The notes under the pieces are model-generated. The model ran no database searches and was not told where the DNA came from. It was given only the letters and a program-made list of their open reading frames with translations. Made by a program: the position numbers and the translations under genes. A DNA stretch of 64,000 nt, from positions 64,001 through 128,000 of the forward strand of contig CAVUVW010000026.1 in the NCBI GenBank assembly GCA_963745035.1, read 5' to 3'. Within the stretch, counting starts at the first letter, position 1; every line of letters begins with the position of its first letter. Source of the stretch: an uncultured delta proteobacterium (GTDB taxonomy: Bacteria > Desulfobacterota > Binatia > UBA9968). This document shows, in pieces, positions 16,707 through 33,796 of the stretch.

Positions 16707-16811
16707 GTGCAAATTGCGTTTGCCGAGTGGACGCCCGACGGGCACCTCCGGGACTCGAGCTTTGCGGGTCTGCGCAACGATAAAGCCCCCCGACATATTG
16801 TGCGGGAGTAG
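16707..16811 (+). pseudogene. LigD/ATP-dependent DNA ligase C-terminal fragment
   Basis: VQIAFAEWTPDGHLRDSSFAGLRNDKAPRHIVRE*. Confidence 0.75.
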
Positions 16812-16849
16812 CTTGCTCCCCGCATCAAACCCCGGGTGATCGAACCGAT

Positions 16850-16869
16850 GCGTCGTTCAGTTCAATCCT
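16850..16869 (-). repeat. Inverted AGGATTGAACTG site (left boundary of module A)
   Basis: GCGTCGTTCAGTTCAATCCT; homolog at 31635-31655; reverse complement of the start of the 130-bp element. Confidence 0.7.
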
Positions 16870-16961
16870 GCGGGGAACTTTGCAATGGTCTGGCCGAAAT
16901 AAGCCGCCATTCGTTAGGAAGATAACCCGCCGCCCTGGCAGGTTTTGTCGGAAACGAAACG

Positions 16962-17080
16962 TTGACAAACTACGGAGCTGGCGGATATTGCATCTATTTG
17001 GATTTTATTGTCGGAGCCACTGCCGAGATAAACCGACCAGTAATTGTCGGTCGCTACGGCGGCTCACTTAATAGTTAGCG
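16962..17080 (+). promoter_or_regulatory. Candidate cassette promoter and attI-like site
   Basis: TTGACA at 16962; GTTAGCG at 17074-17080 opens the first cassette with no upstream RYYYAAC partner. Confidence 0.45.
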
Positions 17081-17094
17081 TGCAGAGGCGAACT

Positions 17095-17538
17095 ATGGCG
17101 AAGGTCAAGGAGTTACACGATGCGGTGAAGCGTGGGGATTTGGCTCTGGTGAAGGCGCTCCTTGACGAAGACCGTGCTCTCACGAACGCCGTGACCACGA
17201 CAGACGCGCGAGGCACGTATCCCCTCCATGTGGCGGCCGAGTTCGGTCAAGCCGAGGCTGCGCGCATCCTCCTGGGCTTTGGAGCGGACGTGTCGCTGCT
17301 CGATGCGGAGAATTATGCCATCGCCCTGGGGTGGGCAGCGTTCTTCGGCCGGCCAGAGGTTGTCGCGGTCCTTCTGGAAGTAGGATCGGAACCCAGCCAA
17401 CGCAACAAGCATGGTTTGACACCGCTTGCCTGTGCGGTGGGCGGGACGCAGGGGAGATGGAAACACTTCTCCAACGCGACTGTCGAGGAGTGGCAGCGGG
17501 CGGCAGACTTGATTCGTTCTCACGGAGGCATCGAGTAA
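17095..17538 (+). CDS. Ankyrin-repeat protein (integron cassette 1)
   Basis: LHDAVKRGD, YPLHVAAEFG, GLTPLACA repeats; bounded by GTTAGCG/CGCTAAC. Confidence 0.9.
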   Translation: MAKVKELHDAVKRGDLALVKALLDEDRALTNAVTTTDARGTYPLHVAAEFGQAEAARILLGFGADVSLLDAENYAIALGWAAFFGRPEVVAVLLEVGSEPSQRNKHGLTPLACAVGGTQGRWKHFSNATVEEWQRAADLIRSHGGIE

Positions 17539-17556
17539 GCGCTCCGGTTCCATGCG

Positions 17557-17642
17557 CGCTAACAACGGCGTTGAGCGGTCGCGCTGATGGTTGGCGACCA
17601 CACTGTCGTTGGTGCCCGCGCCGCCCACGCCTATCGTTAGAC
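17557..17642 (+). other. attC site 1
   Basis: CGCTAAC...GTTAGAC with an imperfect internal palindrome; R'' complements the cassette start. Confidence 0.85.
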
Positions 17643-17694
17643 CACTTAAACGACTACCGTTCCGATGACAGCAACTCAATAAAGGAGAATACCG

Positions 17695-18009
17695 ATGAAA
17701 TACATGATCAGCTGGTTCGAACGTCCGCAAGGATCGCCTACGGAATACGAGAATGCCCAGAAGCGAATACTGGAGGTTTTCACCCAATGGAAGGCGCCCG
17801 CCAATTTCAATATCGAGTTATTCGTGGTGCGGGTAGGCGATTGGGGCGGGTATATGATGGTGGACTGCGATGATCCGTTGACCGTTCACAAGTTCTGCTC
17901 GACCCTTCCTTCTTTTGTATTCGAAGCACGGCCAGTGGTTCCCGTTATGGACGCTGTCCGGGTGGAGCTAGAAGCGATTGCCTTTCGTGATGGGCTCAAA
18001 GGCAAGTAA
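17695..18009 (+). CDS. DUF3303-like protein (integron cassette 2)
   Basis: MKYMISWFER...FVVRVGDWGGYMMVDCDDP...FEARPVVPV; RBS AAGGAG. Confidence 0.8.
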   Translation: MKYMISWFERPQGSPTEYENAQKRILEVFTQWKAPANFNIELFVVRVGDWGGYMMVDCDDPLTVHKFCSTLPSFVFEARPVVPVMDAVRVELEAIAFRDGLKGK

Positions 18010-18084
18010 CATTCGAGAGGATCGAATCGCATTTGCCGAGTCGGCGAAAGATGTATTCACGACGAGTTTGATAAACACCGTGTG

Positions 18085-18177
18085 GCCTAACCATGCGCTG
18101 CAAGCGAACCCGGCCATCGCGCTCCGGTTGCACCGGACGCCCTCGTGGGCCGGGTCGCTGAGCTTGGGTCGTTAACC
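18085..18177 (+). other. attC site 2
   Basis: GCCTAACCATGCGCTGCAAGCGAACCCGGCC...GGCCGGGTCGCTGAGCTTGGGTCGTTAAC. Confidence 0.9.
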
Positions 18178-18307
18178 TACGATTGAACTGAATTCTCCAT
18201 CAACGCAGTCTCGCGTGAGATCACATTGAAGCGACGGAAATTTGGGTTCCCCTTGACGAATACTGTCAAAGGTATGGGCCGCGGGGACGTCTGATATTCA
18301 GTCAGCG
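18177..18307 (+). repeat. 130-bp non-coding element, copy A (copy B at 32609-32738)
   Basis: Near-identical copies that tolerate 1-nt indels; internal hairpins. Confidence 0.9.
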
Positions 18308-18384
18308 TGCTTCTCAGTTCGATGTCCGCTCGCCCTCTCATAAACGGCTTGCTTGATCGCCGCAGGTCGTCAGGGGGCCACCCA

Positions 18385-19197
18385 TCAGAAGGTTGCATGC
18401 GTGTCCTGCCATCCGAGTCCGTTCCAAAACACTATTTCGAGCAATCGCCTTATTTTCCGACTTGGAAGATTGCGAAAGATCCCATTGTTCGGCCCTACCA
18501 TGCGGTAATCCAAATGAATCCGCCGGTAATCCCATTTGACACGGTCAAGCGGTCGCCATTCGCCGGGGGCCTCCTCGCCGAACAGCCCGCTTGAGCCGCC
18601 TTCAAACCGATGGTCGACGAAAATGCCCTCTCTTGCCGGGTTGGGGCATCGTTGCTCAGTAATAGTGAGTTGTGGGACAATCTTGAATCTCGTGTATCCC
18701 AGCTGATCGAGCAGCTGCAGTTGCGTGAACGTGTCCTTGATCGACGTCGCGCTTGCCTCCACCGAAATATACTTCGGCTTCTTCTCTACGCTGAGCAGAC
18801 CTTCGAGGCATACGGAATCCATTCCCTCGATATCTACTTTCATGTAGTACGGCACACCGAATTTTAGGATGACGTCCTTGATCGTAGTCGCCTCGACCTT
18901 AACCGGATGACTCTTGAATCCTCGCGCATCGTTTCTTTTGACCCACTCGGGGTTTGCTGTCCCCCATATGCTGACTTGCTCGTTGACAAAAAAATCGATG
19001 GTTCCGACGGTATGACTGATTGCCTTGTTGATGATCTGTAATTGGCCAGAGCCGATCGCTGCCGAGAATTTGTGTGCGCACTCCTCGCAGAGTTGGGCAT
19101 TCGCCTCGATTCCGACGACCCGAAATCCTTTTCTGAGATAGAACTCCGTGTCTTCTCCTGTATGCATTCCAACGTCATAGATTAAGTCGTCTCGCAT
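18385..19197 (-). CDS. FkbM-family methyltransferase
   Basis: IYDVGMHTGEDT...VVGIEAN...MKVDIEG. Confidence 0.9.
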   Translation of the reverse strand: MRDDLIYDVGMHTGEDTEFYLRKGFRVVGIEANAQLCEECAHKFSAAIGSGQLQIINKAISHTVGTIDFFVNEQVSIWGTANPEWVKRNDARGFKSHPVKVEATTIKDVILKFGVPYYMKVDIEGMDSVCLEGLLSVEKKPKYISVEASATSIKDTFTQLQLLDQLGYTRFKIVPQLTITEQRCPNPAREGIFVDHRFEGGSSGLFGEEAPGEWRPLDRVKWDYRRIHLDYRMVGPNNGIFRNLPSRKIRRLLEIVFWNGLGWQDTHATF

Positions 19198-19312
19198 CTC
19201 GTAATCTCCAGGGTTATGAATACGCGCCGATCTGTGTCTCGAAAGATCGTCATCGCTTCGGGCACAACGGCGCTTTTCGACTCAACGATGGGTCCGAAAC
19301 CCGTCTGCTCTG

Positions 19313-19489
19313 GTTCTGTGCCAACCAGAGCAGAACAAACACCTCCCATTGTCTAACACCCGGGAGGTGAACATTAAATAATTGGATTTTTTCGTTGATG
19401 TTCCGCTCTGGTTTGGCCCCGACTTGACTCTTAATCAGCGGGTCCGGGGGTGTTCTGGATGCTAGGATTGAACTGAATTCTCCATCAAC
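19313..19489 (+). repeat. att-arm plus tRNA-Lys(CTT) fragment plus GCTAGGATTGAACTG site, copy A (copy B at 33456-33614)
   Basis: TGACTCTTAATCAGCGGGTCCGGGG anticodon-arm fragment; ~170 bp homologous to copy B. Confidence 0.8.
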
Positions 19490-19490
19490 T

Positions 19491-19590
19491 TTGAGTGCGG
19501 TGGTACTGCTTACTGTTGCGGTCGTCGCCGAGGCGCAACAGCCTAAGAAAATCCATCGAATAGGTTATCTATCGCTGATCGACCCAGCTC
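19491..19590 (+). pseudogene. N-terminal fragment of an ABC substrate-binding protein
   Basis: VVLLTVAVVAEAQQPKKIHRIGYLS. Confidence 0.65.
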
Positions 19591-19690
19591 TTGGACAAGC
19601 AGATTGAATGGCAGCAGCAGTATCCGGGACACGATATCTATTTCCCGCAGAGCGCTGCCGCTCAGCTTAAAATCAGCGCTGGTGCAATGG

Positions 19691-19819
19691 AAAGAATCAT
19701 CACGTTTAGAATGCTCGTGGTCCACCGATGTCATTCACTGACGAACACCGAACTGTTCACCAGCGATCAGCAGATGTTCACGAGTGGATAGCCCCCCAAT
19801 TACTATTAAGATTACTAAG
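19691..19819. repeat. ~130-bp dispersed repeat (partner 29701-29840), replication-gene/iteron-like
   Basis: Shared gaatgctcgtggtcc...gaacacc.aactgttcacc.gcgatcagcagatgttca...gccccccaattact.ttaagattactaaga. Confidence 0.8.
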
Positions 19820-19894
19820 AGAATTATTATTTAGATAAATACTAATGGTGTCCGCGACGATTCGTGGTCCACTGAGAACGTTCTGCCTTGGTCG

Positions 19895-20290
19895 TCACGG
19901 CTGGGATTCCGAATACGCTCCAACACGATAGATCGTGATAGCAATACTCAACCCCAATGTTGCCGCCTGTCGGAGCACCGCTTCAGGAAGCTGGAAGGTC
20001 TGAGACTCTGGTTCCGTTCCGCCCTCGAAGGCTAGATCCACCACACGTCGAGTGCATCCCTCCCAGAGTGCCTTCGATTCACCCGTTAGCTTCTCAAGCA
20101 ATGAGCAGTAAAACGATACGGCATCAGCTGCCGTTGTGTCGGTGTCGGCAAGACCTACCGACACACGATAGACGTCGCCAACCCAGTCGTTGAGATGAAT
20201 GATAATGCTGTTGCCGAACTCAGCCGCTAGCGCCGAAAGATTGCGTTCTGAGTCGCATTGCAGGTCCGTGGTGATGTACGAGATAGCCAT
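19895..20290 (-). CDS. Hypothetical protein (DUF4279-like)
   Basis: 131-aa globular ORF ending L..AA.LGLSIAITIY. Confidence 0.6.
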   Translation of the reverse strand: MAISYITTDLQCDSERNLSALAAEFGNSIIIHLNDWVGDVYRVSVGLADTDTTAADAVSFYCSLLEKLTGESKALWEGCTRRVVDLAFEGGTEPESQTFQLPEAVLRQAATLGLSIAITIYRVGAYSESQP

Positions 20291-20293
20291 GCT

Positions 20294-20744
20294 TTAGCTG
20301 CTCCGGTTGAGCGCCGTATCATCGCCCATTTCGGCGATGATTTCCTGAAGCGATTCGGTTTTCCCCGCCTTCTCGAACCCAAACCGCTGAAGATTACCAG
20401 CCAAGCTATTCACCACGCCGCGTTTACACCCGTCCAGCGTGTGCAGCGCCTTCGGATTGTTCCGCGCCTTTGGTTTTGATTCCATCACGCCGTCAATTGC
20501 TCGGTTCACGGCAGCCAACCAAGCCGCGTCACTGGCGATGACCTCGGGGAGCACGCGCATGGCCGTGCTGATCTGAGACTCGCCGCCCTTGTCGGTGATT
20601 AAGCCGTTAAGGAGTTCTTCCCGGATGGACTGCTCTGCTGGTGTGAGGGCGCCGTTTACCCGGCGTTGTGCAACCCCCCGCTGGACCGTGTCTGAAAGCG
20701 TTCTGGTTGCCTGGTGGGCCGGATTTCCCGCATATGCCTGCCAT
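20294..20744 (-). pseudogene. Second TerS-like phage protein, +1 frameshift in a G6 run
   Basis: MAGICGKSGPPGNQNAFRHG.../...DKGGESQISTAMRVL...FGFEK. Confidence 0.65.
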
Positions 20745-21035
20745 GAGCACAGGATAGCGGAGACAGCGCTATTTTGCCTGTGAATAGCGCGATTCGATCT
20801 GTCAGACGAGATTCTATTCGATTCTAGATGGGATTTCTGACCGACAAAGTAATGGCAAAGCCAAGAAATTCCTCTTTGTTCTCTGCTGGTTAGAGGTGCT
20901 ACGAGAATCCATAGTCCTCGTGTCGGGTGGTATTGGTTTCGCTAGTTCGTGCCCATCGATAGGCAGGGGATAGTCGAGCGTCTATGCGCCGAACCTGATT
21001 TGGCGGACTAGCTTCGGCGCGAACTTCCGCTCCAG

Positions 21036-21575
21036 TCAGACCTCCGCAGATACATCTGCACGCTCGTGCACGTCGCGGTCGTATAGGTTTTGTGTCGTGA
21101 AATCTTGAACCCTGTGAATTCCGTTGGGAGTCTGGTATTGAACCATCACCAAATCGGGTGACCACGTAATGGAAAACGTGACGGCCTGTTTTTCATCTAA
21201 GAAGTCACCGATCATGCGCAAAGACAACGAGAAATTGGCAGTACGCGACAGCCTACCTGAAGCGCTGCCGCGTCGGGAACGTCCCTCAGTGTCTAAGCGA
21301 TCAATATCGGAGCTTGTTATAAGAATCCCTTTTAGATCCAAAGCATGTCGCATGGATTGGTCTACACGGCCCCAGAGTTTTTCAGTGATGGCCTTTCGCT
21401 TTCTTGCGAATGCGCTGCGTGTCGGTATTAGAATGTAATCCGCGCTGTTTTTGCGTAATTCGAAGGAATTGAGCCGAAGCGCGTCCAATGCCTGACCAAT
21501 GGCCCTAAGCGATTGTGCATACGAGAGGGTTTCTGCCACCGGGGGATGATTTTTAACGTTCGACTGATTCTGCAT
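21036..21575 (-). CDS. Hypothetical protein, paralog of 6440-6952
   Basis: SLRAIGQALD...FEL...SDIDRLD...LRMIGDFLD...F.ITW. Confidence 0.7.
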   Translation of the reverse strand: MQNQSNVKNHPPVAETLSYAQSLRAIGQALDALRLNSFELRKNSADYILIPTRSAFARKRKAITEKLWGRVDQSMRHALDLKGILITSSDIDRLDTEGRSRRGSASGRLSRTANFSLSLRMIGDFLDEKQAVTFSITWSPDLVMVQYQTPNGIHRVQDFTTQNLYDRDVHERADVSAEV

Positions 21576-23182
21576 TGTGTACTTCCTATAGGAAATCCCC
21601 TCTCGGCATTGAGAAACGCCACTTTTGCCGGGATTAGGTTCGATAAAGAGCGGCGCGCGATTCAAAGTTATTGACGTCGAGACCACTGAGAAGCGGGCGC
21701 TGAGCTGGGGCCCTTGCACCGCTGGAATAATATGAAAAGAGCGCTCTCTCTGCTAGAAAGCAGAAGTTGGAGAACGACATCAGGGAGCTGGACGCGTTAA
21801 TAAGTCTGTACAAGCTACCCACGGGATATCGAAGCTTACAAAATTCAACGTCCCATCTCCGCGAAATTGTCTCCGGATAACATGGGCCATTATAAAAACT
21901 CCGAGAATACGGGTAACGCACTGCCACCCTTCTTGACTATTTCCGGCGCGAATTAGGGAATTGTCATTCCCCTCCATGTGTTTTGTCTTGCAGCTTCTGG
22001 AGATCCTCTAAGCACTGCTCTGGCTCGGCATTTACAACATGCCATTATAGAGACCGATACCTCTCAACAGTCCGAACAATTTAAGTGGCCACAGAGTAAA
22101 CATTTCACTTTAAAAGTGGCCACTCTGGTCGCTTGCTCATTCCTGATCCGGCTCTCTTTGGTTTCATTGTCGTTGAGGTTGAGCGGTCATCGCGGGAGGT
22201 AGACCCGAAATTTACGCCGCCGACTTGAGGGCCGCGCTGTTTCTTTTGCCTCGGGTAGGATTTGGGTTGTAATGAATTCGGGATGTGCTCTCTTAATCTC
22301 TTCTGATAGACCTGCTTTAGCTGTAGCGATTTCTTTGGCTTTTCTAATAACATGGGGTTTCAAATCGGAGGACCTCATCGGAATTTCTCCTCCTAATTGC
22401 TCATGGGTCAGCCAAATACCAGTGGGACCGCTATTTTTCTCTCTAAAAGATTTCATCAAAGCACTCCGCCAACAATGGATCGCCTTTACCGCAAAGATGA
22501 TGCCGCGTAAAGTCGTCATGTCTTGTACGGAAGTAGCTCTAGATGGAAAGCTTTTCTACTATGTCTCGCCAGTCGTGGGGGATATGCTTGGCAAATTGAC
22601 AAAAGCCAGGGCTCGAAGATCGAATTCAATTCTCCCCGGTATGGTAGTAGTGTCTGCTTCTATCGTATTTTGGCCTCCAAAACCCTATGGAGAGGAGAAT
22701 TGAAATGACTAGAACAACGACTGGCCGACACGTCCGCGTACCGGATCATGTGTTAACATCTCGCGAAGTGACTTTAGAAAATTACTTGCCGCCAGCTTGG
22801 ATGATGCACAGCTGATCATGGCAGGTGAGCACATCGATAGGGAGTTTAACGAAGAGATCGACAAGGCACGGCGCGACGAGGGACGCGAACGGGAGAAGAA
22901 AAGCGGACAGACACACCTACTACTGTTCAACTTTCTCACTTGAAAAAAGATTTGAAGTGGTGTTGGGATTTCGTGGTTAGCGCGCGGTCGCTTTTACACC
23001 CGGTGAACAATTTTACCGGTTTGGAGTTCTACTTTCCGAAACTGGCTTCGTTGGTTTTGACAACCTTTGACAGCGGTCAAATCCTAAAGCGCTCGCACGT
23101 TCGTCTGTGGCTTGCGGCATTTTTTTGCGTTATCATCGATGTTGCTCATCGGCATTGTCATTGGCTCGGAAAGGAAGAGGGG

Positions 23183-23763
23183 ATGCCACTGCCATACCAT
23201 ACCTTATTGCCTTGTCGGACATTTCTCGCTCTCCTACTAGTGACGGGTTGCGCACCTGAAATTAGGACTCCAAAGTCGACAGCGCTGAACTGGACGGCAG
23301 AAAACCCACTCGTGTCTACAGGCGTCTCAGAAGGATCGAACGCGGTATCCAGAGTTCTTAGCCCGTCTAGTCTTGAGGCGCTGCGAAGAGGAGAAAGCAC
23401 TTCGACACCGCCATCGAGTCCCCTTACAGACATTTATTTTGCATTTGATCGATACGACCTTCGAGTGGATGCTCGCGAAACTCTCGATGCGAATGCGAAA
23501 TGGCTTAAGGAGAATCCTTCGGTCCGGGTGGAGATCGAGGGACACTGCGATGAGCGTGGTACAAGCGAATACAATTTGGGATTGGCCGCCAAGCGAGCAC
23601 AGGCGGCCAGGGATTACTTAGTATCGGTGGGAATAGTGGGCCTCGATTATCCACAGTAAGTTACGGCGAGGAAACTCCAATGTGCACGGAACACACGGAA
23701 TCCTGCTGGCAGAAAAATCGCCGGGAGCGCTTTGTCATTGCTTCGGCACTTCCGACGCTTTAA
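23183..23763 (+). CDS. pal: Peptidoglycan-associated lipoprotein (OmpA family); frameshift near 23640
   Basis: Lipobox VTGC; IYFAFD...IEGHCDERGTSEYNLGL; continuation VSYGEE.P.C...CWQKNRR. Confidence 0.85.
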
Positions 23764-23768
23764 ATCAC

Positions 23769-24292
23769 CTAATAGATTTCGCCAAAACCTATAGCTGCTT
23801 TTTTGGCGTTGATATAAACGTCTACCTCATAATTGCCAATAGCCCATTTTCCCGGGTCGAAACTTCCAGCGTTGACAACATGGCTAGACGAAGTCCAATC
23901 TGGTCCAATTCGGTTGTCGACTTCTTCAATGCGGACGGTCCTTCCGTTACGGCGAAAATCAAGTCTAATGGGAAAATGGATACTGGTTTTGGTTCGAGGA
24001 TAGTCAAGACTAATGTCGGTATAAACGGTCCTGCCTATCTTCATTGCAAACCTGGTTTCATATTGTCGATGCACAAATGCTACTTTAGATCGTTCACCTT
24101 CGAAAAACTGGACTTTCGTAACACGTGCGTTCACGGATGGACTTAAGGCGATTGGCTCCTCGACAATCATGGCGTCACGCACCGTGGAGCCCGAGCGAGT
24201 TTCCAACGTACGCGTAGCGCTACAGGCCGTGATCGACAGAAAAAAAAGGCAACCAATGGTAGGCCAGGCGATTGTTTTAGGTCGAAGAACAT
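23769..24292 (-). CDS. Lipoprotein with an Ig-like beta domain; homopolymer frameshift at 24240-24247
   Basis: RBS GAGGAGGG; lipobox ITAC; PGKWAIGNYEVDVYIN. Confidence 0.6.
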
Positions 24293-24588
24293 CACTCCCT
24301 CCTCGCTTTAACCCTTAGAACAATCAAAATGCCAAAATGGAAAGGGCTATAAATTGTATTGTTCTACACGGATTGTGTCGTGGCAGACCAACAGTGTTTA
24401 CACAACTGGCCCAATATGACCAAACTTGATACCTGGTGCTGGGTCCCGGCTCGTCACGGATTGAGCCACTGCGAGAGATGTCTGGTACATTTCGCACCTC
24501 GTTCGTGAGAGCTGATATTGTTGTCGGAGCACTCAATTGTTAAACCCGGCACTCTGCCTCTCGTTCTTCCGTTTTTCGAAGATCACGC

Positions 24589-24927
24589 TTAGGTTTTGTA
24601 AAACTCGCCCAATCTCGCAGAGGAGACGCACTTGGAATTTGTGTAAAGGCGTAATAGCAGTGTGAGTTCTCGCGCCGTTTCTACCGGTGCGCTGTGATCC
24701 TCGCCCCTAAGTTCACGTCGTTCCTTGTCCAACTGCTGTATTAACGACGATCGACGATCGTTACACTGCCGGGCAGTTGCGAATGACTCAAGCGGCATCC
24801 ATTTGTTCGTGGCTGGGAGTTCCTCGGTGATGGTGAACTCTGGAGCGATTAGTATCCAACTGGTCCCGAACGAATTTGCTGGTGCGGATAAAAAGGATAC
24901 GAGAAGAAGGGCTATCGAAATTTTCAT
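24589..24927 (-). CDS. Secreted hypothetical protein
   Basis: Signal peptide; W..LESF.T..QC...KCV motif. Confidence 0.65.
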   Translation of the reverse strand: MKISIALLLVSFLSAPANSFGTSWILIAPEFTITEELPATNKWMPLESFATARQCNDRRSSLIQQLDKERRELRGEDHSAPVETARELTLLLRLYTNSKCVSSARLGEFYKT

Positions 24928-25145
24928 AGGCTTGTGATGGTAACGGTTTATGAGCTATCCATCCAAGCTTTATCTTTACCTCGGGCTCTGGTACGGATTT
25001 TGACCGTCGTCGCCGGTCGATGGCTGGAGCTTTCAATGCTTACAAGGTCGGAGCGTTTGGTGTGGCCTATGGCGTTGCCATGGTTTTCGTTGGAGGTGAT
25101 TGTTTGGGCGAAAGACCTTGTAATGGAATACAAAAGCAACACGGC

Positions 25146-25268
25146 TCAGGCTCTAAGCGTTCCTGACAATTGCAACTTTCTGCGTTCCCTGAACTCCGCG
25201 GTACACCATCCGATAACAAATCCTGACATTGCAACTACGATTATTGATGTGATCGTGAAAGCTTCCAT
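25146..25268 (-). CDS. Small single-TM protein, 40 aa
   Basis: RBS AGGGAGGT; MEAFTITSIIVVAMSGFVIGWCTAEFRERRKLQLSGTLRA*. Confidence 0.55.
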   Translation of the reverse strand: MEAFTITSIIVVAMSGFVIGWCTAEFRERRKLQLSGTLRA

Positions 25269-25753
25269 TTGTTACCTCCCTACTTCGCAAAAAAGCCACA
25301 ATGTAAATGGTTGCCGTCCGGTAGACGGAGCCCGACTCAGCAAAGATCGTGCTCGGAGTTTCTGCGGATTACTGCGAGCCTGGGAGGAAGGCACCTAGGA
25401 CGATCTGCCCAGCAGCAGAACAGATTTGACGTGGTGAACTGGCAGACCCGCATGTCTCGCGGTTCTACTTCACTTCGGGAACCCGAGGCAAATGGCACCC
25501 GTTCATCCCTCTCTACACAGGATCCGAACCATGTAACGCGCGGTTAAAGAGTAGTAAGAGCTCGAGCGTTGGCGCCCTGACCAGGGTGAACGCGATCTGC
25601 GCAACGAGGAGCAGCTTCAGCCAACGGGAGTGCCACATCTACTCCGTCGCAAGCGAGTAGAAGGAAGGGTTCTTTCGCTTGCCCGGCAGATTTCGTGCAA
25701 GGCCATTGCGCCCAAATTCAGGCAGGCGGGATCATGTGCGGCGCACGCAGCTG

Positions 25754-25957
25754 CTACAGTTTGCTCGGTGTGATCTCTGGGCAACTCTCGGGAGTTTTTG
25801 GCAACTCACCTATCTTTTTGATTGCTCGCTCTCTACACCGACAGCAAGCAACTGTAGAAGTCGAGATTTCGCGACATTCACGACAACTGCGGTGGCCGCA
25901 TAGTGCGCACGTTACTTCAAAAAGAGGCCACTCGGCATGTTTGATCATTTTTGGCAT
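25754..25957 (-). CDS. Small Cys-rich protein, paralog of 33797-33976
   Basis: EWPLFEVTCALCGHRSCRECREISTSTVACCRC. Confidence 0.7.
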   Translation of the reverse strand: MPKMIKHAEWPLFEVTCALCGHRSCRECREISTSTVACCRCRERAIKKIGELPKTPESCPEITPSKL

Positions 25958-26119
25958 CACCGCTCGATAACCATCAGTTCCCGCGAGCGGATCATCTGAG
26001 AGCAAGCTCGATGCCTCGCATTCATGTCATGTAGCGTGTCGGATTGAAGGTATTTGAACAATGTTGTCTGTGCCTGTTGACGGCACAATGACGTGCGACT
26101 GGCACAATGTTCTGCGCTA

Positions 26120-26500
26120 CCTCTGACGCTAAGGTAGTAGCACTGGGTTACCATCCCCCATACGTCGGGATTCATTTCGCCGGATAATATACGGTCCACA
26201 TTCTTGCCAAGGGCATCAATATCGATGCACAACAACTCGTGCCCGGTCTCCTCTGCACAGAACCGCCGAAAATACCCGGAAAGAAAATACCCGGAAACCG
26301 TTCATCCCTGGTTGCGAGTTGATCTGCCGCAGCCGTCAAATACCTGGGCGTATGCTTTACAAGGTAATAGGTTTCTCGTAGGTACGCCAGATAGTGGAAG
26401 CGGGTGAAATCGCCGGCGGCGAGTCGCGTGAAGATCGGATGAGGATCGAGAGTATTTTCTTTGTACGACCTAAGGTCAGTGAGAAGCTCCGAAATCACGG
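26120..26500 (-). pseudogene. Heme-oxygenase-like/TenA-PqqC iron-redox enzyme fragment
   Basis: YLAYLRETYYLVKHTP.../FCAEETGHE..C.D...LG across frameshifts; short tandem duplication aaatacccggaaa. Confidence 0.65.
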
Positions 26501-26689
26501 CTACCTCATACGTCGAAAAATGAATCCGTGTGGGACAAAGTATACCACCGGTGCTTGATCGCTCTGGGTAGTGCAGGAATTTTTCGTGGCGGAGGCGAGT
26601 TAAGCACAATCGAGAACTTCGGCGAGGATGAGAGCCAAAGTGGAGTGCGGCGGTCGGATTCACACCGTGCTCTCTCACATGGAGATAAA

Positions 26690-26878
26690 ATGATACGTTT
26701 CACGGCGGTAAGCGTGATTCTTCTTTTCACCCCGTGCATCGGTTGCAGCGCGCAGGTCGTGGAGCGCCCGAAGCAACTGGAGGCAAGCCGACCCAAGCAG
26801 GAAGAAGATCGGAAGTCTTCCTCAACGCCTACATTCACGTATCGCCCAGGTGCTGGTCTGATAATCGAGGGGCGCTAA
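26690..26878 (+). CDS. Small lipoprotein
   Basis: RBS GGAGA; signal peptide with IGC lipobox. Confidence 0.55.
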   Translation: MIRFTAVSVILLFTPCIGCSAQVVERPKQLEASRPKQEEDRKSSSTPTFTYRPGAGLIIEGR

Positions 26879-27823
26879 GGAGCCCTGATCGAGCGTTCTG
26901 CTGTAGTTTATCAACTCAGCATGATCGTTGGGCCAGAGTAATTCTCGGATCGCAGCGCCACGGTCTGTGCTCCCCGGCTTTTTCGAGATGGACTCCCGGC
27001 GTGTCGCCTGGTTTCACTTGTGGCGCGTACATTCGGGTCCGGTTTGGCTAATGGTTTAACCCGTTCTTCGATTCACTACAGAGCGGGAATAGAGAAATTT
27101 GAATTTCGGCTTGCCCTCGTAGCGATAAACGGCAGCAGGCGAGCGGTTCTCGTTGAACTCTTTCCTCATTGCCCCTTGCACCTCCATGTTTGAGGAGCGC
27201 TACGGACTCAGTAAATCTCGTAGCGGAGGTGATAATGAAAAATTTCTCTCTGTAGCCGTTCTCCTCGTGACTGCTCCACAAGGAAAGAAGTTGACGGGCC
27301 TCGAATACGGGGAGTGCGGCTTTAGTCTGACTGTGGCGCTCCAACTCGGTACCGGGTTAACTGATGAAGAAAATCTATTTCACGGGGTTAAAGAACTAAT
27401 CTGAAAAATCATCTTGATCCCCACGCGACAACTATGTCAGAAGTTTTTTCCTGTCACGCAGTTTCTTCTCGGCCACGATTTCCAAAGCCGACAAGATTAC
27501 ACCCCAGGCATCAAGCGGCTGCCTTTCATTGCCCTGGTACAGTTGTTGCCTATTTACCGAGTCGACGTTGATGCTACGAACTGACCACCCCAGATGGTCA
27601 CCATGGGTGTCAGGGAGCAAATGGTGAAACCGCCAACGGTCGCGATCGCTTTTTTTGCCTCCCCGCAGCCTGCTGACTCTTTCTCGGTAATCAGTCCGTA
27701 ATCTGCACAACAAGCGACAACATTGGCAAAACTCGGCCGACTCGGTTCGCTGGAGCGATTGAAGGACCGAAACGGCAGAGAGAACATTTGGTTATCGGAG
27801 CGGTGATCGTGAGGCAAAACTCA

Positions 27824-28237
27824 ATGAGAACATTCCTTTTGTCCGGAGTCATTTTCGTCTTTTTGAATGGCTGCGCTGCTCCGTTGGCTCTGACTCTTCT
27901 TGGCGTAGGTGCCGGCGTAACGACGGGTACAGCAGTCTCATACACGATGGACGGGATTGCCTACCGAACCTTTACAGCGCCGCTTCCACAGGTCGAGCGG
28001 GCCACGCTGACAGCGCTAAATGATATGGGAATGGAAGTCGAGAGCGCAGAGAAAACTGACAACGGGAAAGCAATCAAAGCCAAGGGAGTCGACCGTCGGA
28101 TCGAGATAGAATTGCAGGCAATAAGCTCGAAGGCAACCCGAATCCGCACGGTTGCCAAGGACGGGGTGTTTTTCAAGGACCGGGCGACCGCTACGGAAAT
28201 CATTTTACAGACCGAAAGAATTCTTGGCAAAGCGTAA
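27824..28237 (+). CDS. DUF3568-family lipoprotein
   Basis: LNGC lipobox, GVGAGVTTG, ...RATATEII.QT. Confidence 0.8.
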   Translation: MRTFLLSGVIFVFLNGCAAPLALTLLGVGAGVTTGTAVSYTMDGIAYRTFTAPLPQVERATLTALNDMGMEVESAEKTDNGKAIKAKGVDRRIEIELQAISSKATRIRTVAKDGVFFKDRATATEIILQTERILGKA

Positions 28238-28255
28238 CCACAAGGGGGGTTATTT

Positions 28256-29101
28256 ATGAAGAAAGTACCGTACGTGTTCTTTATCGGTGTTTCGCTATTA
28301 ATCTTGGCGGCGGCTCCGGCGCAGAACTTTGCTCAGACAACTTCTGCGAGTAGCACGCCAGCTACCAACATCAGCAATGACTACAGTTACTTTCTTAAAA
28401 ACGTCAACTCACAGCAAGTCGTAAACGACCTTAGAAACGGGCAGTGGACCACCACTGTTACAGACCCTAAGACAAATGCGACAACTACTACCACCGAGGC
28501 TCTTCCAACCGGGAAGATGGGATTCGGCAATGTGAAGATTTCCTTGGGTCTAGCCCAGGAGAGCCTAAGGCAGCAAGGCATCCTACAGCCCACAACTGAG
28601 CAGCTTCACACGGCCATGGTGGGCGGGCAAATGGTTCCGGGCGACCCCACGACCACGACCAATGGCATTCTCCAGATGCGCGCCGATGGAATGGGTTGGG
28701 GACAAATTGCCCAAAAGTATGACGTCAAACTCGGTCAGCTCATGAGTGGCAAGCAGCCCGCCTCGACAACAACGACCAGCACGACGAGTACTAGTACGAC
28801 CAGCAAAGGTATCACTACCGGCAACGGAAAGTCGTCGACAACCTTCACGGGTAAAGGGAATGGCAAAGCCTTTTCAGGAAGTGAATCTCAGGAAAGCGGA
28901 ATCGTCAGCGCCTCGGGCCGAACCTCCGGTACATCCTCTGGTTCCGTAAGTCACGGCGGGCGTGGCATTGTGAGCGGGTCCGGTCGATCCATAGGTCATA
29001 CGAGCGGCATCGTTACGGGCGGGGGCAACGGGCATCAATATGGCGCATCGGGAGGCGGTCACGGTAATAGTGGGGGAAATGGAAAAGGTCATTCTAAATA
29101 G
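28256..29101 (+). CDS. Secreted Thr/Ser/Gly-rich protein
   Basis: Signal peptide; MGFGNV.ISL and GILQMRADGMGWGQIA motifs; Gly-rich tail. Confidence 0.8.
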   Translation: MKKVPYVFFIGVSLLILAAAPAQNFAQTTSASSTPATNISNDYSYFLKNVNSQQVVNDLRNGQWTTTVTDPKTNATTTTTEALPTGKMGFGNVKISLGLAQESLRQQGILQPTTEQLHTAMVGGQMVPGDPTTTTNGILQMRADGMGWGQIAQKYDVKLGQLMSGKQPASTTTTSTTSTSTTSKGITTGNGKSSTTFTGKGNGKAFSGSESQESGIVSASGRTSGTSSGSVSHGGRGIVSGSGRSIGHTSGIVTGGGNGHQYGASGGGHGNSGGNGKGHSK

Positions 29102-29471
29102 GCCCATGACCGACAGTCCGATCTGTATTTTTGAGTAATGAAAAATGGAACAACGTCAGAATTGTAATCACGAAAAAAGATCACACTCGTCAGAAAGCTG
29201 TGCTTCCGATTGCGTTACCTGTCGGCCCGCGAACGCGCCCATATTTCTCAATAGCATCTCGACAGGAGAAGACATTTCAGAGCAGATTGCGCGCCTGCGC
29301 AGATTCGAGCCGTCGCCGATGAACTTGACGCGTAATCTGCTCTGACCGGACATCCTGCTCATCAGCAGTTAGATCAGCCTCGCTGCGTCGGCGCTGAATT
29401 GTGGAAAGTCCATGCCGGAATCCGGTCTGATTGAGACGGTGTATAGTCATTAAAAACTAGGAGACAAACTT

Positions 29472-29603
29472 ATGAGCGGAAAGGTGATTGGGCTTCTACT
29501 GGCTCTTGCGCTCATATGGTGGCTTTACAGTTTCTGTGGAGGAGATCCGAGATGCCCGGCGACGGACTACGCGATACGATCACCGATCCGTTGGCTTTTC
29601 TAA
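29472..29603 (+). CDS. Small membrane protein, 43 aa
   Basis: RBS AGGAGA; MSGKVIGLLLALALIWWLYSFCGGDPRCP... Confidence 0.5.
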   Translation: MSGKVIGLLLALALIWWLYSFCGGDPRCPATDYAIRSPIRWLF

Positions 29604-30078
29604 CGACTTAAGCAACAGCTAATGCGGGGTCATCAGCGCCGGTACTCTGGGGATGGGTGATGATTGCGTGCAATACGGGAGCTTCAGCGCTGGTGGGATG
29701 GGAAGAATCATCACCCTAAGAATGCTCGTGGTCCTGCTAGACAGTAGATGCCGTTCACTGGTGAACACCAAACTGTTCACCGGCGATCAGCAGATGTTCA
29801 TGGGTGAATAGCCCCCCAATTACTTTTAAGATTACTAAGATCGTCCGCTCCTTGGTTATTCCACCTCTGTATTTTTAGCCCAACACCCAATCGTCTCCCG
29901 CTTCCAACTTCAAGTCGCGATCAAAACTCCAAGCCTTCGCGTCGATATCGCGGGGTCTCGCCTCGTGTATGTCACGAGTTTTCCAACTACGAATCAAGGT
30001 GACGATACCTGGAAGGATACAAAAAGATACGCTGGGTGTGATGATGAGTATGAGAGCTAGACTGTGCACGTTTCTAAC

Positions 30079-31553
30079 TAGTTCTCACTGAAAAAGTAGG
30101 GTTGAGACCGGATTGGAGATCATCAGCGACTGAATCGGTTTTTCAAATGGGAACAATCTTTAGAGTTGATCATCACTCAGGTTCTTTGCCACAGGTTGTA
30201 AGAGAAGATCGCCCATCCTGTCCAGATAGCCGTTCCTGCAGAGCCCTTGGCCAGCACTCGACCCAAGCCGAACTTGCGTTTCAGCATACTGATGGAGGCT
30301 TCTATGCCGCAGCGAAACCGTTGCAATTGTCTGAACCACTTCTTTCTTTGATGAGTCCTTTCACGGCTGCTCAAGCGGCCCACTTTCGGGATGCCGACTT
30401 TCTCAATCCCGGCCTGGCTGAGTTTCAGCACGTTATCGCGACTGTAGTAACCTCGATCCGCGGCCAGTTCCGTAGGTTTTATCCCCACAGCGGTTTTTGC
30501 CTGTCGCAGTACCGAAAGCAGTTCGGTCCTATCGCTGGGGTTGCCTCTGTGAACCTCGTAGTGAACGATGACTCCACAACTGTCCTGCACCAGCTGCAGC
30601 GTACGCCCAAACTCCACCGCCTTATTAAGTTTCCCTTTGCGAATCGGCCGCACCTCAGGGTCGTGGAAGGAAACGATCCGCTGCGGGATTGATTTTTGTC
30701 CCGCAAGCTTTTGCTCGGTCTGGCTCAGAATAGTTTGAGCCCGCTCGATTTGATCCAAAAACTTTCCCTTGAGCTTTGCACACTGATCCGACACCGATGG
30801 AAACGCCCGGCGGCTCTGTCGAACGGTGTGTTGGACAAGCTTGGCCACTTTCTTGAGGATTTTTCTTCCCTTCCTTTGACGCTCTTTGGGCTTGCCCTTG
30901 GCCGACTGACTCCAACTGAAAAGCGCCCGCTTGGTGGCCCGTACGTGGCTGGTGATCTTTTGACCCAAAGAGCGCGCCGTACGGGTAAGCGTTTTGATCG
31001 CCTGGTGCATCACTCCAACATCGTTGGGATAGCTGATGTGAGCCTCCAGGGTGGTGGAGTCGATGCGAATCCGGCGCGGCTTAATCGATCGACTCTTGAT
31101 CAACTGCTTGACCAAATGCTTATTGAGACCGCTGATCCGATCTTGGCCAAATCTTTGATTGAGCTTGATCAAAGTCGTAGCGTCGGGGACGGGGTCCATC
31201 AGGGAAAGATGGCAAAAATACCGCCACGGCAGCCTCTCTCGAACTTCCCGCTCCACTTCTTCGTAGCTCAAGCCCCAGCGAAATTTCAGGTACATCATCC
31301 GCAGATAGATCCCCACCGCCGTGCCGGGACGGCCCAGACTCGGATCGAAAACCTCCTCAAAGGGTCTGAGCAAAGGCGCATTGGACAAAAGCTCATCGAC
31401 CTTTTTAAGCTCTTCATCCAACTCGTAGAGCGAGGCATCGACAAAACCATCGCCAAAACTCATTTGCTGGGATATGGGTCTGCGCATGATTTACTCTTTA
31501 CACGATACTACTGCTCAGACCCAAGACAATTTGTACTTTTTCAGTGAGAACTA
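30079..31553 (-). mobile_element. IS5/ISNCY-type insertion sequence
   Basis: 20-bp perfect TIRs TAGTTCTCACTGAAAAAGTA / TACTTTTTCAGTGAGAACTA (terminal TA may be the target duplication). Confidence 0.92.
30177..31487 (-). CDS. IS5-like DDE transposase
   Basis: GRPG, PDATTL, RIDST, AADRGY, RCGIEASIS.LKR. Confidence 0.95.
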   Translation of the reverse strand: MRRPISQQMSFGDGFVDASLYELDEELKKVDELLSNAPLLRPFEEVFDPSLGRPGTAVGIYLRMMYLKFRWGLSYEEVEREVRERLPWRYFCHLSLMDPVPDATTLIKLNQRFGQDRISGLNKHLVKQLIKSRSIKPRRIRIDSTTLEAHISYPNDVGVMHQAIKTLTRTARSLGQKITSHVRATKRALFSWSQSAKGKPKERQRKGRKILKKVAKLVQHTVRQSRRAFPSVSDQCAKLKGKFLDQIERAQTILSQTEQKLAGQKSIPQRIVSFHDPEVRPIRKGKLNKAVEFGRTLQLVQDSCGVIVHYEVHRGNPSDRTELLSVLRQAKTAVGIKPTELAADRGYYSRDNVLKLSQAGIEKVGIPKVGRLSSRERTHQRKKWFRQLQRFRCGIEASISMLKRKFGLGRVLAKGSAGTAIWTGWAIFSYNLWQRT

Positions 31554-31634
31554 ATTACTACTGGATCGGTTTCACGTACTAAAAGCCGCGGTCGGATTCT
31601 CCATCAATCCGATATTCGCAGCAATCCAACTAAA

Positions 31635-31655
31635 GCGTCGTACAGGTCAATCCTA
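31635..31655 (-). repeat. Inverted AGGATTGA site (left boundary of module B)
   Basis: GCGTCGTACAGGTCAATCCTA, homologous to 16850-16869. Confidence 0.65.
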
Positions 31656-31723
31656 AAGATATCTGGGATTGGTTTGCCTGGATACACCGCAGCCTGATAT
31701 CTGGATACACCAAGGGAGCACGT

Positions 31724-32500
31724 ATGTTCGAAGTCGCAGAGGCATATGAAGTAATGATGGGGCGGTGGAGCCGGCAGTTGGCGCCGTTGTTTGTGGCCTT
31801 TGTCGGTGTCCGGGATGGTGAGAGTGTGCTCGACGTAGGATGTGGCACGGGCTCGCTATCAATGACTTTGGCCAGAGTCACTGGAGCTTCGAAGATTGTT
31901 GGTATCGATCCTTCCAGCGGTTTTGTCGAATACGCCCGGACGCAAAATGCCGATCCGCGTGTGACCTTCGAGGTCGGCGACGCGCAGGCCTTGCCTTACT
32001 CCGACGAGTCATTCGACCGATCCATGGCATTACTCATCGTCAACTTTATCCCCGATGCTCCAAAGGCGGCGAAAGAGATGCGCAGAGTGACGCGGTCAGG
32101 AGGTATAGTTGCAACGACGATGTGGGACCGCCGTGCTAACGAACTCAATGCCTGCTTGTGGAAGGCCGCCGTTGCGATCGATCCGACTGTGAAACGGCCT
32201 ACTGAGACGGGACGGTCGTACGGTTCTGCGGAAGCGCTTTCAGATCTCTGGAAAAGCGCCAGTCTTACAGACATCGAAGTTACAGACTTGATGATGCCGT
32301 GCTAGTTCTCTTCGTTTGATGAGCTGTGGCAACGTAGTCTGACTGGCGAGAGCGCTGGGAGCGCTTACGTGCTCAGTCTGACAGAGGATCGCCGCCAGGC
32401 GTTAAGACAACAGTTGCGGCAAGATGTTCTGCACGGCAATGCCGATGGGCCGTTTACACTTCAAGCGAAAGCGTGGGCGGTGCGTGGTCTCGTGCCTTGA
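31724..32500 (+). pseudogene. Class I SAM methyltransferase with an in-frame TAG at 32303-32305
   Basis: VLDVGCGTG; same frame continues FSSFDELW...AKAWAVRGLVP*. Confidence 0.85.
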
Positions 32501-32553
32501 ATCGAATTGCGTAATACCCGGGGAAGAAGTTGAGAGCTGTTATTGACAGATTT

Positions 32554-32608
32554 GCCTAACCTCCGGCTTGAGAAAGGCGCTTCGCGCTTCTCAGCCTTCA
32601 CGTTAACG
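32554..32608 (+). other. attC site 3 (short)
   Basis: GCCTAAC...GGCTTGAGAA...TTCTCAGCC...GTTAACG. Confidence 0.75.
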
Positions 32609-32738
32609 CTAGGATTGAACTGAATTCTCCATCAACGCAATCTGGCGTGAGATCACATTGAAGCGACGAAATTTGGGTTCCCCTTTGACGAATACTGTCA
32701 AAGGCATGGGCCGCGGGGACGCTGATATTCAGTCAGCG
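32609..32738 (+). repeat. 130-bp non-coding element, copy B
   Basis: See 18177-18307. Confidence 0.9.
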
Positions 32739-32853
32739 GAATATTTCCATTCGATGTAGCGTGCGAAGCGAGGCGGTTTTAGCGGCGCCTCTCACCTAAT
32801 TAGGATGATCACACCTATCGCCATTTTCCGTAAAAGCAGTCCGGAGAAAATTT

Positions 32854-33332
32854 TTATCCTGCCGGTACTACTCCGCGCACTGCCCAAGCCTTTGCACGAA
32901 GTTTAATCGACCCATCAGGGCGATTACCAAGACTGTCTGTGCGTAGTCGCTCCTTCAATACCTGTCGGCGATCGTCGGAGAGACTACTGATATAAGGTTT
33001 AGGCGGTCCCTGGGTATTTGACAAGAGACTCCAGAAATCGTCAAGGGAAGTTTCTGAGCATCTCCGATTTCAAAAGCAACATGCGGATGTGAATTCTGCG
33101 CACGAGCATATTCTAAGTAGCCAACTGAAGGGTCAATGCCGACAACAGTTGAGGCTTTTGTTGTATCAGCGATAGTGAATGTCAGTGAACCCGTACCACA
33201 GCCTACGTCTAATACCCGATCCCCTTCTTTAATACCGTCTATAAATTTGATGAAGAGAGGAGCAAGGGTTTTACTCCTGCTTGCCATTCCGGCCTGATAC
33301 TTATCAGCATCCGTGTGCAGGTTGGGTTCCAT
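32854..33332 (-). pseudogene. Internally deleted class I SAM methyltransferase, paralog of 31724-32500
   Basis: RVLDVGCGTGSL...GDAQKLP, then the C-terminal piece KLRAKAWAVRGVVPAG*. Confidence 0.8.
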
Positions 33333-33455
33333 AGTCGCCTCCGTAACCGTGTTGACCGGGACTGACGTCTAACTACCAACATACTGATAGCTTTTGCGGA
33401 TATTAATATCGCCAAAGGCCGCCGGCAAGGTAAAGGCCGATTCTAAGCTGTGCCT

Positions 33456-33614
33456 GTTCTGTGCCAGAACCAGAGCAGAACATCATATCCCATTGCCTAA
33501 CGCCCTGGAGACGAGCGTTAGAATTATTGGCTTTTCTTGTTGATGCTCTGGTCTGCGCTTGAATTGACTCTTAATCAGCGGGCATAGGGTCTTCTGTGAT
33601 GCTAGGATTGAACT
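33456..33614 (+). repeat. att-arm plus tRNA-Lys(CTT) fragment plus GCTAGGATTGAACT, copy B
   Basis: See 19313-19489. Confidence 0.8.
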
Positions 33615-33796
33615 TGAGTAGAAGTTACGCACCCGGAACGACTTAATCACCCTTCCAACCTGTCAAAGAACAGAGACAACCACGCTCAATCATTTCGATC
33701 CTTGCACTTCAGCTGACAGAAATAATCCGGTCTCGCACTTGCTCTCCCCCGATCCGCTCTCAGGACAAAAGCTGTTGGAAAGCAACTACGGGTGAA

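Follow-up and report, generated by a model that had tools for sequence, protein, structure and literature searches.

Integron biology assumes one docking site (attI) next to one integrase (IntI). Clusters of attC sites without an integron integrase (CALIN) are common, and their origin is debated. The survey of Cury et al. 2016 (PMC4889954), which defines them and takes 4 kb as the distance to the integrase gene (intI), finds an IntI elsewhere in the same genome for about half of them. As stated in the parts of that survey drawn on here, most integrons have no known attI sequence and no search for attI was made, while transcription of the cassettes mostly runs opposite to that of intI. Insertion outside att sites by IntI is described by Loot et al. 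(bioRxiv 10.1101/2022.09.11.507474). In Acinetobacter, class 1 integrons bracketed by copies of a MITE (miniature inverted-repeat transposable element) are thought to be mobilised as a block (PMC3934969). The DNA compared here with these systems is a stretch of 64,000 nt (the window) from an uncultured delta proteobacterium of the Binatia (assembly GCA_963745035.1, contig CAVUVW010000026.1, positions 64,001 to 128,000). Within it the same ordered scaffold occurs twice, as scaffolds A and B, bounded by parts of one ~75-nt imperfect palindrome, named the palindromic boundary element (PBE). On balance, it is probable that two layers are superimposed at this locus, namely integron cassettes and an exchange of units delimited by PBE.

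The source genome (G000) is a 7.43-Mb assembly of 28 contigs, in which the window is G000:C26:64001-128000. With two attC sites within 600 nt, no intI nearby and an IntI elsewhere in the genome, scaffold A resembles the CALINs of Cury et al. (PMC4889954, as far as that account goes), and it falls under the definition that asks for two or more attC sites with no intI nearby, the contig having no IntI match. It is not a complete integron, no integrase gene lying beside the array. What distinguishes it from a CALIN is that its cluster comes with a promoter and with a docking site of the attI type, of which G000 has 13 strong copies. One integron integrase in the genome scores above the NCBIfam cut-off (C6:42134-43036; 445 bits versus 265 for TIGR02249). 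No match to TIGR02249 occurs anywhere on C26, and the integrase found there at 60.2-61.3 kb is a frameshifted phage-type enzyme.

The docking site is a 230-nt leader (16870-17080) that follows the PBE right half of scaffold A and five other right halves in G000. It also stands without a right half at seven further places in G000, one of them in the integron region of C6, and is present in 21 of the 31 genus genomes. (This tally and those given below for the PBE pattern and the PBE BLAST query, recombinase relatives, IntI, relatives of the C13 locus and the arm each include genome G005, flagged as unpublished; its removal shifts any of these counts by at most one, and no G005 sequence was used.) In two relatives (G021:C75 and G007:C165) the leader lies on the strand of intI, no further than ~20 nt from its 3' end, and it aligns end to end with the region after G000's own intI, where TCACTTAATAGTTAG is identical at 15 of 15 positions. 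Similarity among leader copies ends at this TCACTTAATAGTTAG crossover box. Among 28 distinct copies, 26 have a downstream first open reading frame (ORF) of at least 60 aa, and no two of these ORFs are homologous (E 1e-5). Because it is homologous to intI-adjacent DNA, loses similarity at the box and precedes unrelated first ORFs, the leader is read as a putative orphan attI. A candidate cassette promoter, TTGACA-16-GATATT, would complete it; this element points into the cassettes and is conserved in the six-copy leader alignment, the promoter scan by itself not being significant. As a side observation, fragments of a reverse-transcriptase-like ORF lie downstream of the orphan attI in G015:C9.

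The cargo behind this site looks like integron cargo. In each of the window's three attC sites the R boxes pair and the inner stem is bulged, as judged by an own heuristic and by folding, which is not the standard covariance-model test. Genome-wide the heuristic is noisy (143 rows, many on both strands), and its calls were used only where checked by eye and fold. The bottom strand of attC site 1 folds as DNA at -22.5 kcal/mol (z -2.5) with its R boxes paired, and a near copy of attC site 2 at 611.7 kb of C14 likewise has a PBE after it. All six units of G000 that open with a right half and the attI-type leader finish with an attC and a left half. The DUF3303 cassette of scaffold A (17636-18029) has an 87% identical counterpart in G012:C72, which belongs to another species and carries an integron with linked intI; there it stands as the cassette next to intI. 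This homology begins at the GTTAG box; the sequences upstream are unrelated, and the attC parts differ. By these comparisons, positions 16870-17080 have the characters of an integron attI, and the DUF3303 gene those of a cassette, with its boundary at G|TT and a copy in another integron. A second type of intI-adjacent region, with inverted ATACACTGACCAGTGTAT / ATACACTGGTCAGTATAC repeats, stands ahead of the first cassette of G012:C72 (L052 2790-2920) and recurs upstream of an IS91-type element in G018:C5 (near L014 5000-5300).

In general, the arrangement recalls a platform of attI and cassette promoter (Pc): a conserved site ends in a GTT box where unrelated cassettes start, a promoter-like element is aimed at them, and the cassettes lie away from the integrase. 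In contrast to such a platform, the site is here detached from intI and dispersed, and six of the G000 copies are fused to a PBE right half. Within the genus, intI, attI and attC sites share one direction, the array lying 3' of intI (L053, i.e. G000:C6:28001-46000, and L048-L052), which is the less common arrangement in the account of PMC4889954. The sequence-only reading had ascribed the differing cargo of the two scaffolds to swapping by a system it did not recognise. Much of this difference has a known cause, since the plus-strand cargo of scaffold A consists of attC cassettes behind an orphan attI. At the level of sequence the integron origin of the plus-strand cargo is established, and this half of the explanation, ordinary integron biology in an unusual setting, is well supported. 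The IntI of G000, encoded on C6, would have docked the ankyrin and DUF3303 cassettes in trans at the orphan attI of scaffold A; each of these ends in an attC, and scaffold B holds one attC cassette.

The boundaries of the scaffolds are of another kind. The motif AGGATTGA has eight exact matches in the window versus 2.25 expected, a number reached by 1 of 100 shuffles, and five of the eight fall in the two scaffolds (16862-, 19464+, 31647-, 32611+ and 33604+). With the variant ACGATTGA at 18179, the scaffolds hold six copies, two of them inverted, which reproduces the earlier count. The two orientations are not separate sites: the inverted site (corrected coordinates in Table 1) forms the right half, and GCTAGGATTGAACT the left half, of a single imperfect palindrome of ~75 nt, PBE. 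Its order is left arm AGGATTGAACTGAA, TTCTCC, CATCAA, variable tip, TTGAAG, CGTCG and right arm TTCAGTTCAATCCT, the arms enclosing an asymmetric inner loop, a second short stem and the tip. The arms, 14 bp long and 42-48 nt apart, look unlike the 28-bp XerC-spacer-XerD arrangement of dif.

The 24-nt core of PBE has 31 copies in G000 (at most four mismatches), many of them arrayed at ~1.2-kb spacing; the units that PBE sets apart are ~1.1 kb long, and their arrays are spread over at least 10 contigs. The main arrays lie at C11:128.5-149.4 kb, C13:1118.8-1125.8 kb and C14:129.6-135.8 kb, with smaller groups on C1, C2, C6, C10, C17 and C19. A 20-nt left-half pattern (at most two mismatches) occurs in 21 of 41 genomes including G000, that is, in 18 of the 24 sampled genus genomes, two of five in a second family and none of 11 in a third; its reversed control has no match in any genome. 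With an 86-nt PBE query, BLAST finds matches in 18 of the 31 genus genomes. A strict full-length pattern, run against one genome per species (185,579 species), is found in 20 stretches; 17 are in metagenome-assembled genomes (MAGs) titled Candidatus Binatia or uncultured delta proteobacterium, and the other three come from MAGs labelled otherwise, on contigs of 3.9-27.6 kb. For 16600-19800, parts are recorded in 20 public sequencing runs from 9 studies, a record on which no conclusion here rests. A plasmid collection has no match to PBE or the attI leader, and no family of Rfam 15 covers PBE, the leader or the arm described below (the window scanned at the gathering threshold, with only a c-di-GMP-II riboswitch found, and three array loci at E<=1, with only a group II intron fragment).

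Across 31 distinct full copies, taken from 12 genomes, pairing holds in 90.8% of cells for the 14-bp basal stem and in 72.6% for the 6-bp inner stem; RNAalifold retains the basal stem only, and single-strand DNA folds are modest (z -1.2 to -4.7). One stem position varies often (C in 20 copies, T in 11) and always faces G, so that only the top strand keeps the pairing. In their sequence the arms are conserved, being nearly invariant across species. In sum, PBE is genuine and conserved, is unclassified and marks the boundaries of units, and the two scaffolds are a local sample of a genome-wide and genus-wide system. In line with the earlier view, the repeats appear not to be a named insertion sequence (IS), dif or attC. 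Upstream of scaffold B stands an IS5-like IS, which was rejected as the cause of the truncated PBE at 31594 because its end is 35 nt off, and as the source of the scaffold repeats because it has its own, different ends.

Two described kinds of repeats come close to PBE. As in the MITE-bracketed integrons, a cassette array has a copy of one short inverted-repeat element on either side. In the account of PMC3934969, however, those MITEs are 439 bp long and the integron retains intI, whereas PBE is a palindrome of 75 nt that occurs split into halves and, in long tandem arrays, also delimits units outside integrons (mostly ABC_sub_bind). With repetitive extragenic palindromic sequences and bacterial interspersed mosaic elements (REP/BIME; cf. 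PMC3184786), PBE shares the character of a short, conserved intergenic palindrome just past stop codons and repeated genome-wide. It differs in number (~30 copies, not hundreds) and in having its halves apart with kilobases of cargo between them. Unlike REP/BIME, it has no link to the genome's Y1 transposase genes at the three loci inspected.

PBE-bounded units have the order right half, cargo, left half. In a sample of 37 distinct units from G000 and from loci fetched from relatives, picked by similarity to PBE, 19 carry one to three ABC_sub_bind genes, three carry ABC_sub_bind fragments and 15 have other cargo. The left half starts 4-21 nt past the ABC stop codon, and the right half lies ~100 nt ahead of the next start. 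Of the 72 ABC_sub_bind-like loci in G000, only 7 lie within 300 nt of a PBE, which indicates that PBE is not a general feature of this family. Several units recur in different arrays. The FkbM unit of scaffold A (18181-19489) matches C11:133508-134836 at 94.8% identity, the TENA (TenA) unit C11:147168-148115 matches C13:1123646-1124598 at 96.6%, and a unit with a 150-aa ORF is 98% identical between its C13 and C6 copies. Between species, the TENA unit is 93% identical to its counterpart in G045, both ends lying within 5 nt of the PBE edges, and a whole ABC unit on C6 is 85% identical to one in G018, ending at PBE. The proposal that the sites bound exchangeable units is supported by these shared modules, which recur in different arrays and end at the edges of PBEs. 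Cargo is not fixed among the relatives, and no unit with a transposase between the repeats accounts for the copies.

The 6.9-kb array on C13 opens with a right half and closes with a left half. The site is empty at 10 of the 13 loci examined in relatives: the flanking genes, for a major facilitator superfamily (MFS) transporter and a cupin-like protein, are at most ~130 nt apart, and a (GTTCAA)n...(TTGAAC)n palindrome fills the space. One relative has the MFS gene, then a right half, then the contig end; another has, inside the native palindrome, a different 1.3-kb insert with an inverted right half; and one is uninformative. A fragment of group II intron domains (D1-D4, 62 bits) lies inside the first unit of the C13 array (L003 9119-9260). 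Runs of (GTTCAANN)3-5 occur 36 times in G000 versus 0 for the reversed control, at C24:46600-52300 and 30 other places. On C24 they form six palindromic pairs at ~1.1-kb spacing within the signal-peptide coding part of tandem periplasmic binding-protein genes, and translate as FKSSTVQTFN...VVELLNPLNVERA.

Candidates for a cognate enzyme were sought among known recombinases and transposases. The window encodes no cognate enzyme, as the sequence-only reading had stated. IntI was rejected as the PBE enzyme, having no within-genus association with PBE and no PBE in six intI-flanking loci. Elements of the IS91 type (tyrosine recombinase plus Y2_Tnp/Zn_Tnp_IS91 genes) adjoin PBEs at five places in G018 and in G015 (L012 15782-17875; L013 5673-7766; L014 2903-4929; L017 1320-3217; L094 9347-11377). 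Two IS91-type copies abut a PBE cut at profile position 15; these two PBEs are among five partial copies that start at profile 13-15. An IS91-type mobiliser in G000 was rejected, as neither the Pfam model nor two G018 protein queries found one there; the Pfam search is weak alone, with no match in any control genome either. Five matches to Y1_Tnp occur in G000, and a link to REP-associated tyrosine transposases (RAYT) was rejected because three inspected loci have no PBE or GTTCAA arrays alongside. A parent IS with PBE-like ends is found neither in G000 nor in the fetched loci. The earlier suggestion of IS-like ends mobilised in trans stays a hypothesis, as no target-site duplication and no cognate transposase were found.

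In the two-layer reading, the scaffolds would be neighbouring stretches of a modular gene array in which PBE delimits the units. Above the integron layer, whole units may be inserted and exchanged at PBE. Such units would comprise ABC_sub_bind genes, orphan-attI mini-integrons and reversed methyltransferase modules with a hairpin and tRNA-Lys arm. The most likely route would be recombination of a resident PBE, or of a native palindrome of the GTTCAA type, with the joined ends of an incoming unit, the palindrome between units being the joint of the end of one and the start of the next. Several observations weigh against such exchange. No recombinase or transposase tracks PBE. The only recombinase inside any G000 array, on C11, was rejected as the cognate enzyme since an in-frame stop interrupts it and 30 genus genomes hold no close relative; its only relatives in the genus are ~40% identical and presumably housekeeping Xer. 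PBE occurs in 11 of 14 genus genomes with an IntI match versus 8 of 11 without, and none of the six intI-flanking loci (five from relatives and that of G000) holds a PBE. Covariation in the stems is not above that of shuffles, 79 of 500 reaching the score. Partial copies end at scattered points (left halves at profile positions 28-64, right halves from 13-48), and a single crossover point within PBE was rejected on this ground. One TENA copy runs 35-90 nt into an ABC 3' remnant and does not start at PBE, which fits homologous recombination. At the C13 insertion no target-site duplication is readable, the empty-site relatives, ~75-80% identical in the flanking genes, being too diverged for base-level junctions.

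Much of this would be expected if PBE were a passive repeat, that is, a structural or regulatory intergenic palindrome akin to the common GTTCAA palindromes of the genome. Arrays would then have arisen by tandem duplication, modules would move solely by RecA-dependent exchange between PBEs, ABC 3' ends and leaders, and IntI would be the sole source of new cargo. A stretch of 75 nt at ~80-100% identity could plausibly sustain homologous exchange. The (GTTCAANN)n palindromes related to PBE, present in G000 and also at the empty site of relatives, the scattered breakpoints, the module boundary inside an ABC remnant and the failure to find an enzyme all agree with a passive repeat, which is possible and to be held with some doubt. 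It fits poorly with the scarcity of PBE at ABC_sub_bind-like loci, with arms far better conserved across species (0-2 mismatches per 20 nt) than the genes they flank (65-85% identity), with unrelated cargo in 15 of 37 units and with whole arrays present or absent at a fixed site. Moreover, in solo units the right half is upstream and the left half downstream, so the hairpin cannot form. At the other extreme, it is tempting to propose that PBE is the attachment site of a cassette system one level above the integron, moving whole units of promoter and gene; this proposal is tentative and rather unlikely. Such a system would include integrase-less attI platforms, stack units end to end at GTTCAA-type palindromes and seed many cassette-capture sites over the chromosome, all served by a single IntI; its own recombinase would act in trans and be an enzyme so far tied to no repeat family.

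Mobile-element readings of PBE fare less well. If the halves were ~24-bp imperfect terminal inverted repeats of a non-autonomous transposon, with a transposase elsewhere (e.g. of the IS91 type), the match of the two ends read outward would be explained (18 of 24 bases, i.e. 75%, including a perfect 14-mer), as would the IS91-type elements that adjoin PBEs in G018 and G015. GTTC/GAAC, in which PBE and the native palindromes are rich, is also the target of IS91. This reading is improbable, because G000 has ~30 PBEs yet no Y2 transposase, the IS91-type elements have their own, different ends ~95-380 nt from PBE, no target-site duplication is readable at the C13 insertion, no transposase unit is directly bounded by the repeats in all copies, and units abut end to end, which is rare for transposons. 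Least probable, and to be given very little weight, is that PBE is an unusual attC-type or secondary site of IntI itself. The arms have facing GAAC/GTTC triplets like the R boxes of attC, the inner loop is unpaired and there is a second stem; of the 31 left halves, 10 lie 5-8 nt past an attC R' box, and the six units with right half and attI all close with an attC and a left half. Against this stand the absence of PBE from all six intI-linked arrays, the lack of association between PBE and IntI within the genus, the 40 PBE copies of G018 (80% complete), in which no IntI is detected, and partial copies whose ends do not fall at the right arm's G|TT. The attC site is used in bottom-strand form, whereas the variable stem pair of PBE (C/T facing G) pairs on the top strand only. 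Taken together, the integron part of the two-layer reading is known biology, and PBE may be either an active recombination site or a passive repeat.

The minus-strand methyltransferase genes form separate modules, each ending in a structured arm. After the second attC of scaffold A come a PBE without right arm, an ABC-type leader remnant and the minus-strand FkbM gene, then the arm and, last, a left half; scaffold B has the identical layout with a different methyltransferase. The minus-strand gene of scaffold B, compared over 32803-33375, is 81-86% identical to C11:148332-149218, where the counterpart is on the plus strand as an attC cassette behind an orphan attI. The arms (19313-19474 and 33456-33614) are 79% identical, and the arm hairpin, with the base GCCAAC...GTTTGGC, folds as DNA at -27 kcal/mol (z -3.8), none of 200 shuffles folding as well. 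The tRNA-Lys fragment noticed earlier in the arm is real: 23 nt, from the anticodon stem-loop onward, are common to the arm and the tRNA-Lys(CTT) gene on C13. A whole tRNA is not found in the window by ARAGORN. Of 31 genus genomes, 6 have the arm, adjoining different genes; it may be the decayed remnant of a recombination site, either attC-like or a tRNA-Lys att site.

Searches of titles and abstracts returned no paper on Binatia together with integrons, and none on dispersed orphan attI copies or on this palindrome. Here a docking site with promoter stands detached from intI, in at least 13 copies in one genome and in 21 of 31 genus genomes, with a different first cassette at each copy examined. 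Detached attI platforms would offer a concrete route by which integrase-less arrays arise, remain expressed and continue to recruit genes. PBE brackets these platforms as well as solute-binding-protein genes and other modules, is strongly conserved and fits no known family. Should PBE be a recombination site, it would define a second and independent system of cassettes; otherwise it still illustrates clearly how repeats organise gene-family arrays in an uncultured soil lineage.

The features of the two scaffolds are listed in Table 1. The repeated ordered architecture reported earlier is real, all the listed pieces being present in the sequence, and Pfam upholds the gene calls (ankyrin, DUF3303, FkbM and two class I methyltransferases), with unlike cargo between the copies of one scaffold. 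The 130-bp element is likewise repeated, at 91% identity without gaps (18177-18289 versus 32609-32721) and 94% in a gapped alignment (18170-18307 versus 32601-32738); its leader remnant was identified by comparison with full ABC_sub_bind units. The first methyltransferase of scaffold B has an in-frame TAG at 32303-32305, where an earlier call (31724-32305) ended, and its frame continues to 32500.

Table 1. Features of scaffolds A and B and of their borders (window positions)
Feature	Position	Strand	Remarks
ATP-dependent DNA ligase 3'-end remnant	16700..16811	+	Resembles the C-terminus of the ligase at L005 14013-14693 (DNA_ligase_A_C); directly precedes scaffold A
PBE right half, profile 27-75	16824..16870	+	nhmmer match at C26 80824-80870; holds the inverted site 16850-16869
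Putative orphan attI-type docking site	16870..17080	+	Promoter-like TTGACA-16-GATATT at 16962-16989; crossover box GTTAGCG at 17074-17080
Ankyrin-repeat cassette ORF	17095..17538	+	Pfam Ank_2 6.9e-18; ATG 17095 downstream of the GTTAG box; originally called 17044-17538
attC site 1	17557..17642	+	R'' CGCTAAC ... R' GTTAGAC; heuristic and fold
DUF3303 cassette ORF	17695..18009	+	Pfam 8.6e-17
attC site 2	18085..18177	+	GCCTAAC ... GTTAACC; heuristic and fold
130-bp element, first copy	18177..18310	+	PBE left half and centre (profile 1-60, right arm deleted), then ABC_sub_bind leader remnant
FkbM-family methyltransferase module	18385..19197	-	Pfam Methyltransf_21 2.2e-12
Arm, first copy	19313..19461	+	Long imperfect hairpin at ~19320-19418, then tRNA-Lys(CTT) fragment
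PBE left half, profile 1-28	19462..19489	+	Fused directly to a 5'-truncated ABC_sub_bind gene fragment, 19491-19607 (translation)
IS5-like insertion sequence	30075..31557	-	24-nt terminal inverted repeats, 96% complementary; DUF772 and DDE_Tnp_1 transposase 30177-31487
PBE without left arm, profile 14-75	31594..31655	+	Holds the inverted site 31635-31654
Class I SAM methyltransferase cassette	31724..32500	+	Pfam Methyltransf_25 1.1e-22
attC site 3	32554..32608	+	GCCTAAC ... GTTAACG; heuristic and fold
130-bp element, second copy	32609..32738	+	PBE profile 1-60 and leader remnant
Class I SAM methyltransferase module	32955..33332	-	Pfam
Arm with tRNA-Lys fragment, second copy	33456..33603	+	Sequence comparison with first arm
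PBE left arm	33604..33615	+	Cut after AGGATTGAACT

The ligase fragment upstream of scaffold A (16700-16811) is a second copy of the 3' end of a ligase gene that lies 22 kb off and is followed by the frameshifted phage-type integrase and adjoined by primase-like genes (L005 14013-17305). Because the ligase 3' end is duplicated 22 kb apart, with this integrase beside the first copy, an inserted island probably separates the ligase gene from scaffold A. Between the two scaffolds, direct repeats of ~150 nt (19673-19820 and 29684-29840, 88-89% identical), in which several TGTTCAC motifs occur, bracket 10 kb. This segment also holds a c-di-GMP-II-GAG riboswitch (27560-27644, plus strand; 50.1 bits versus a gathering score of 40) and, 144 nt downstream of it, a DUF3568 ORF (27788-28237). 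Elsewhere in the window, a direct repeat of 286 nt occurs at 3656-3941 and 5629-5914 (89% identical, 2 kb apart), and a ~75-nt palindrome of the family CGTTAACGGCTC...GTTAACG, found by the attC heuristic, lies at 12362-12437 and at six other places in G000.

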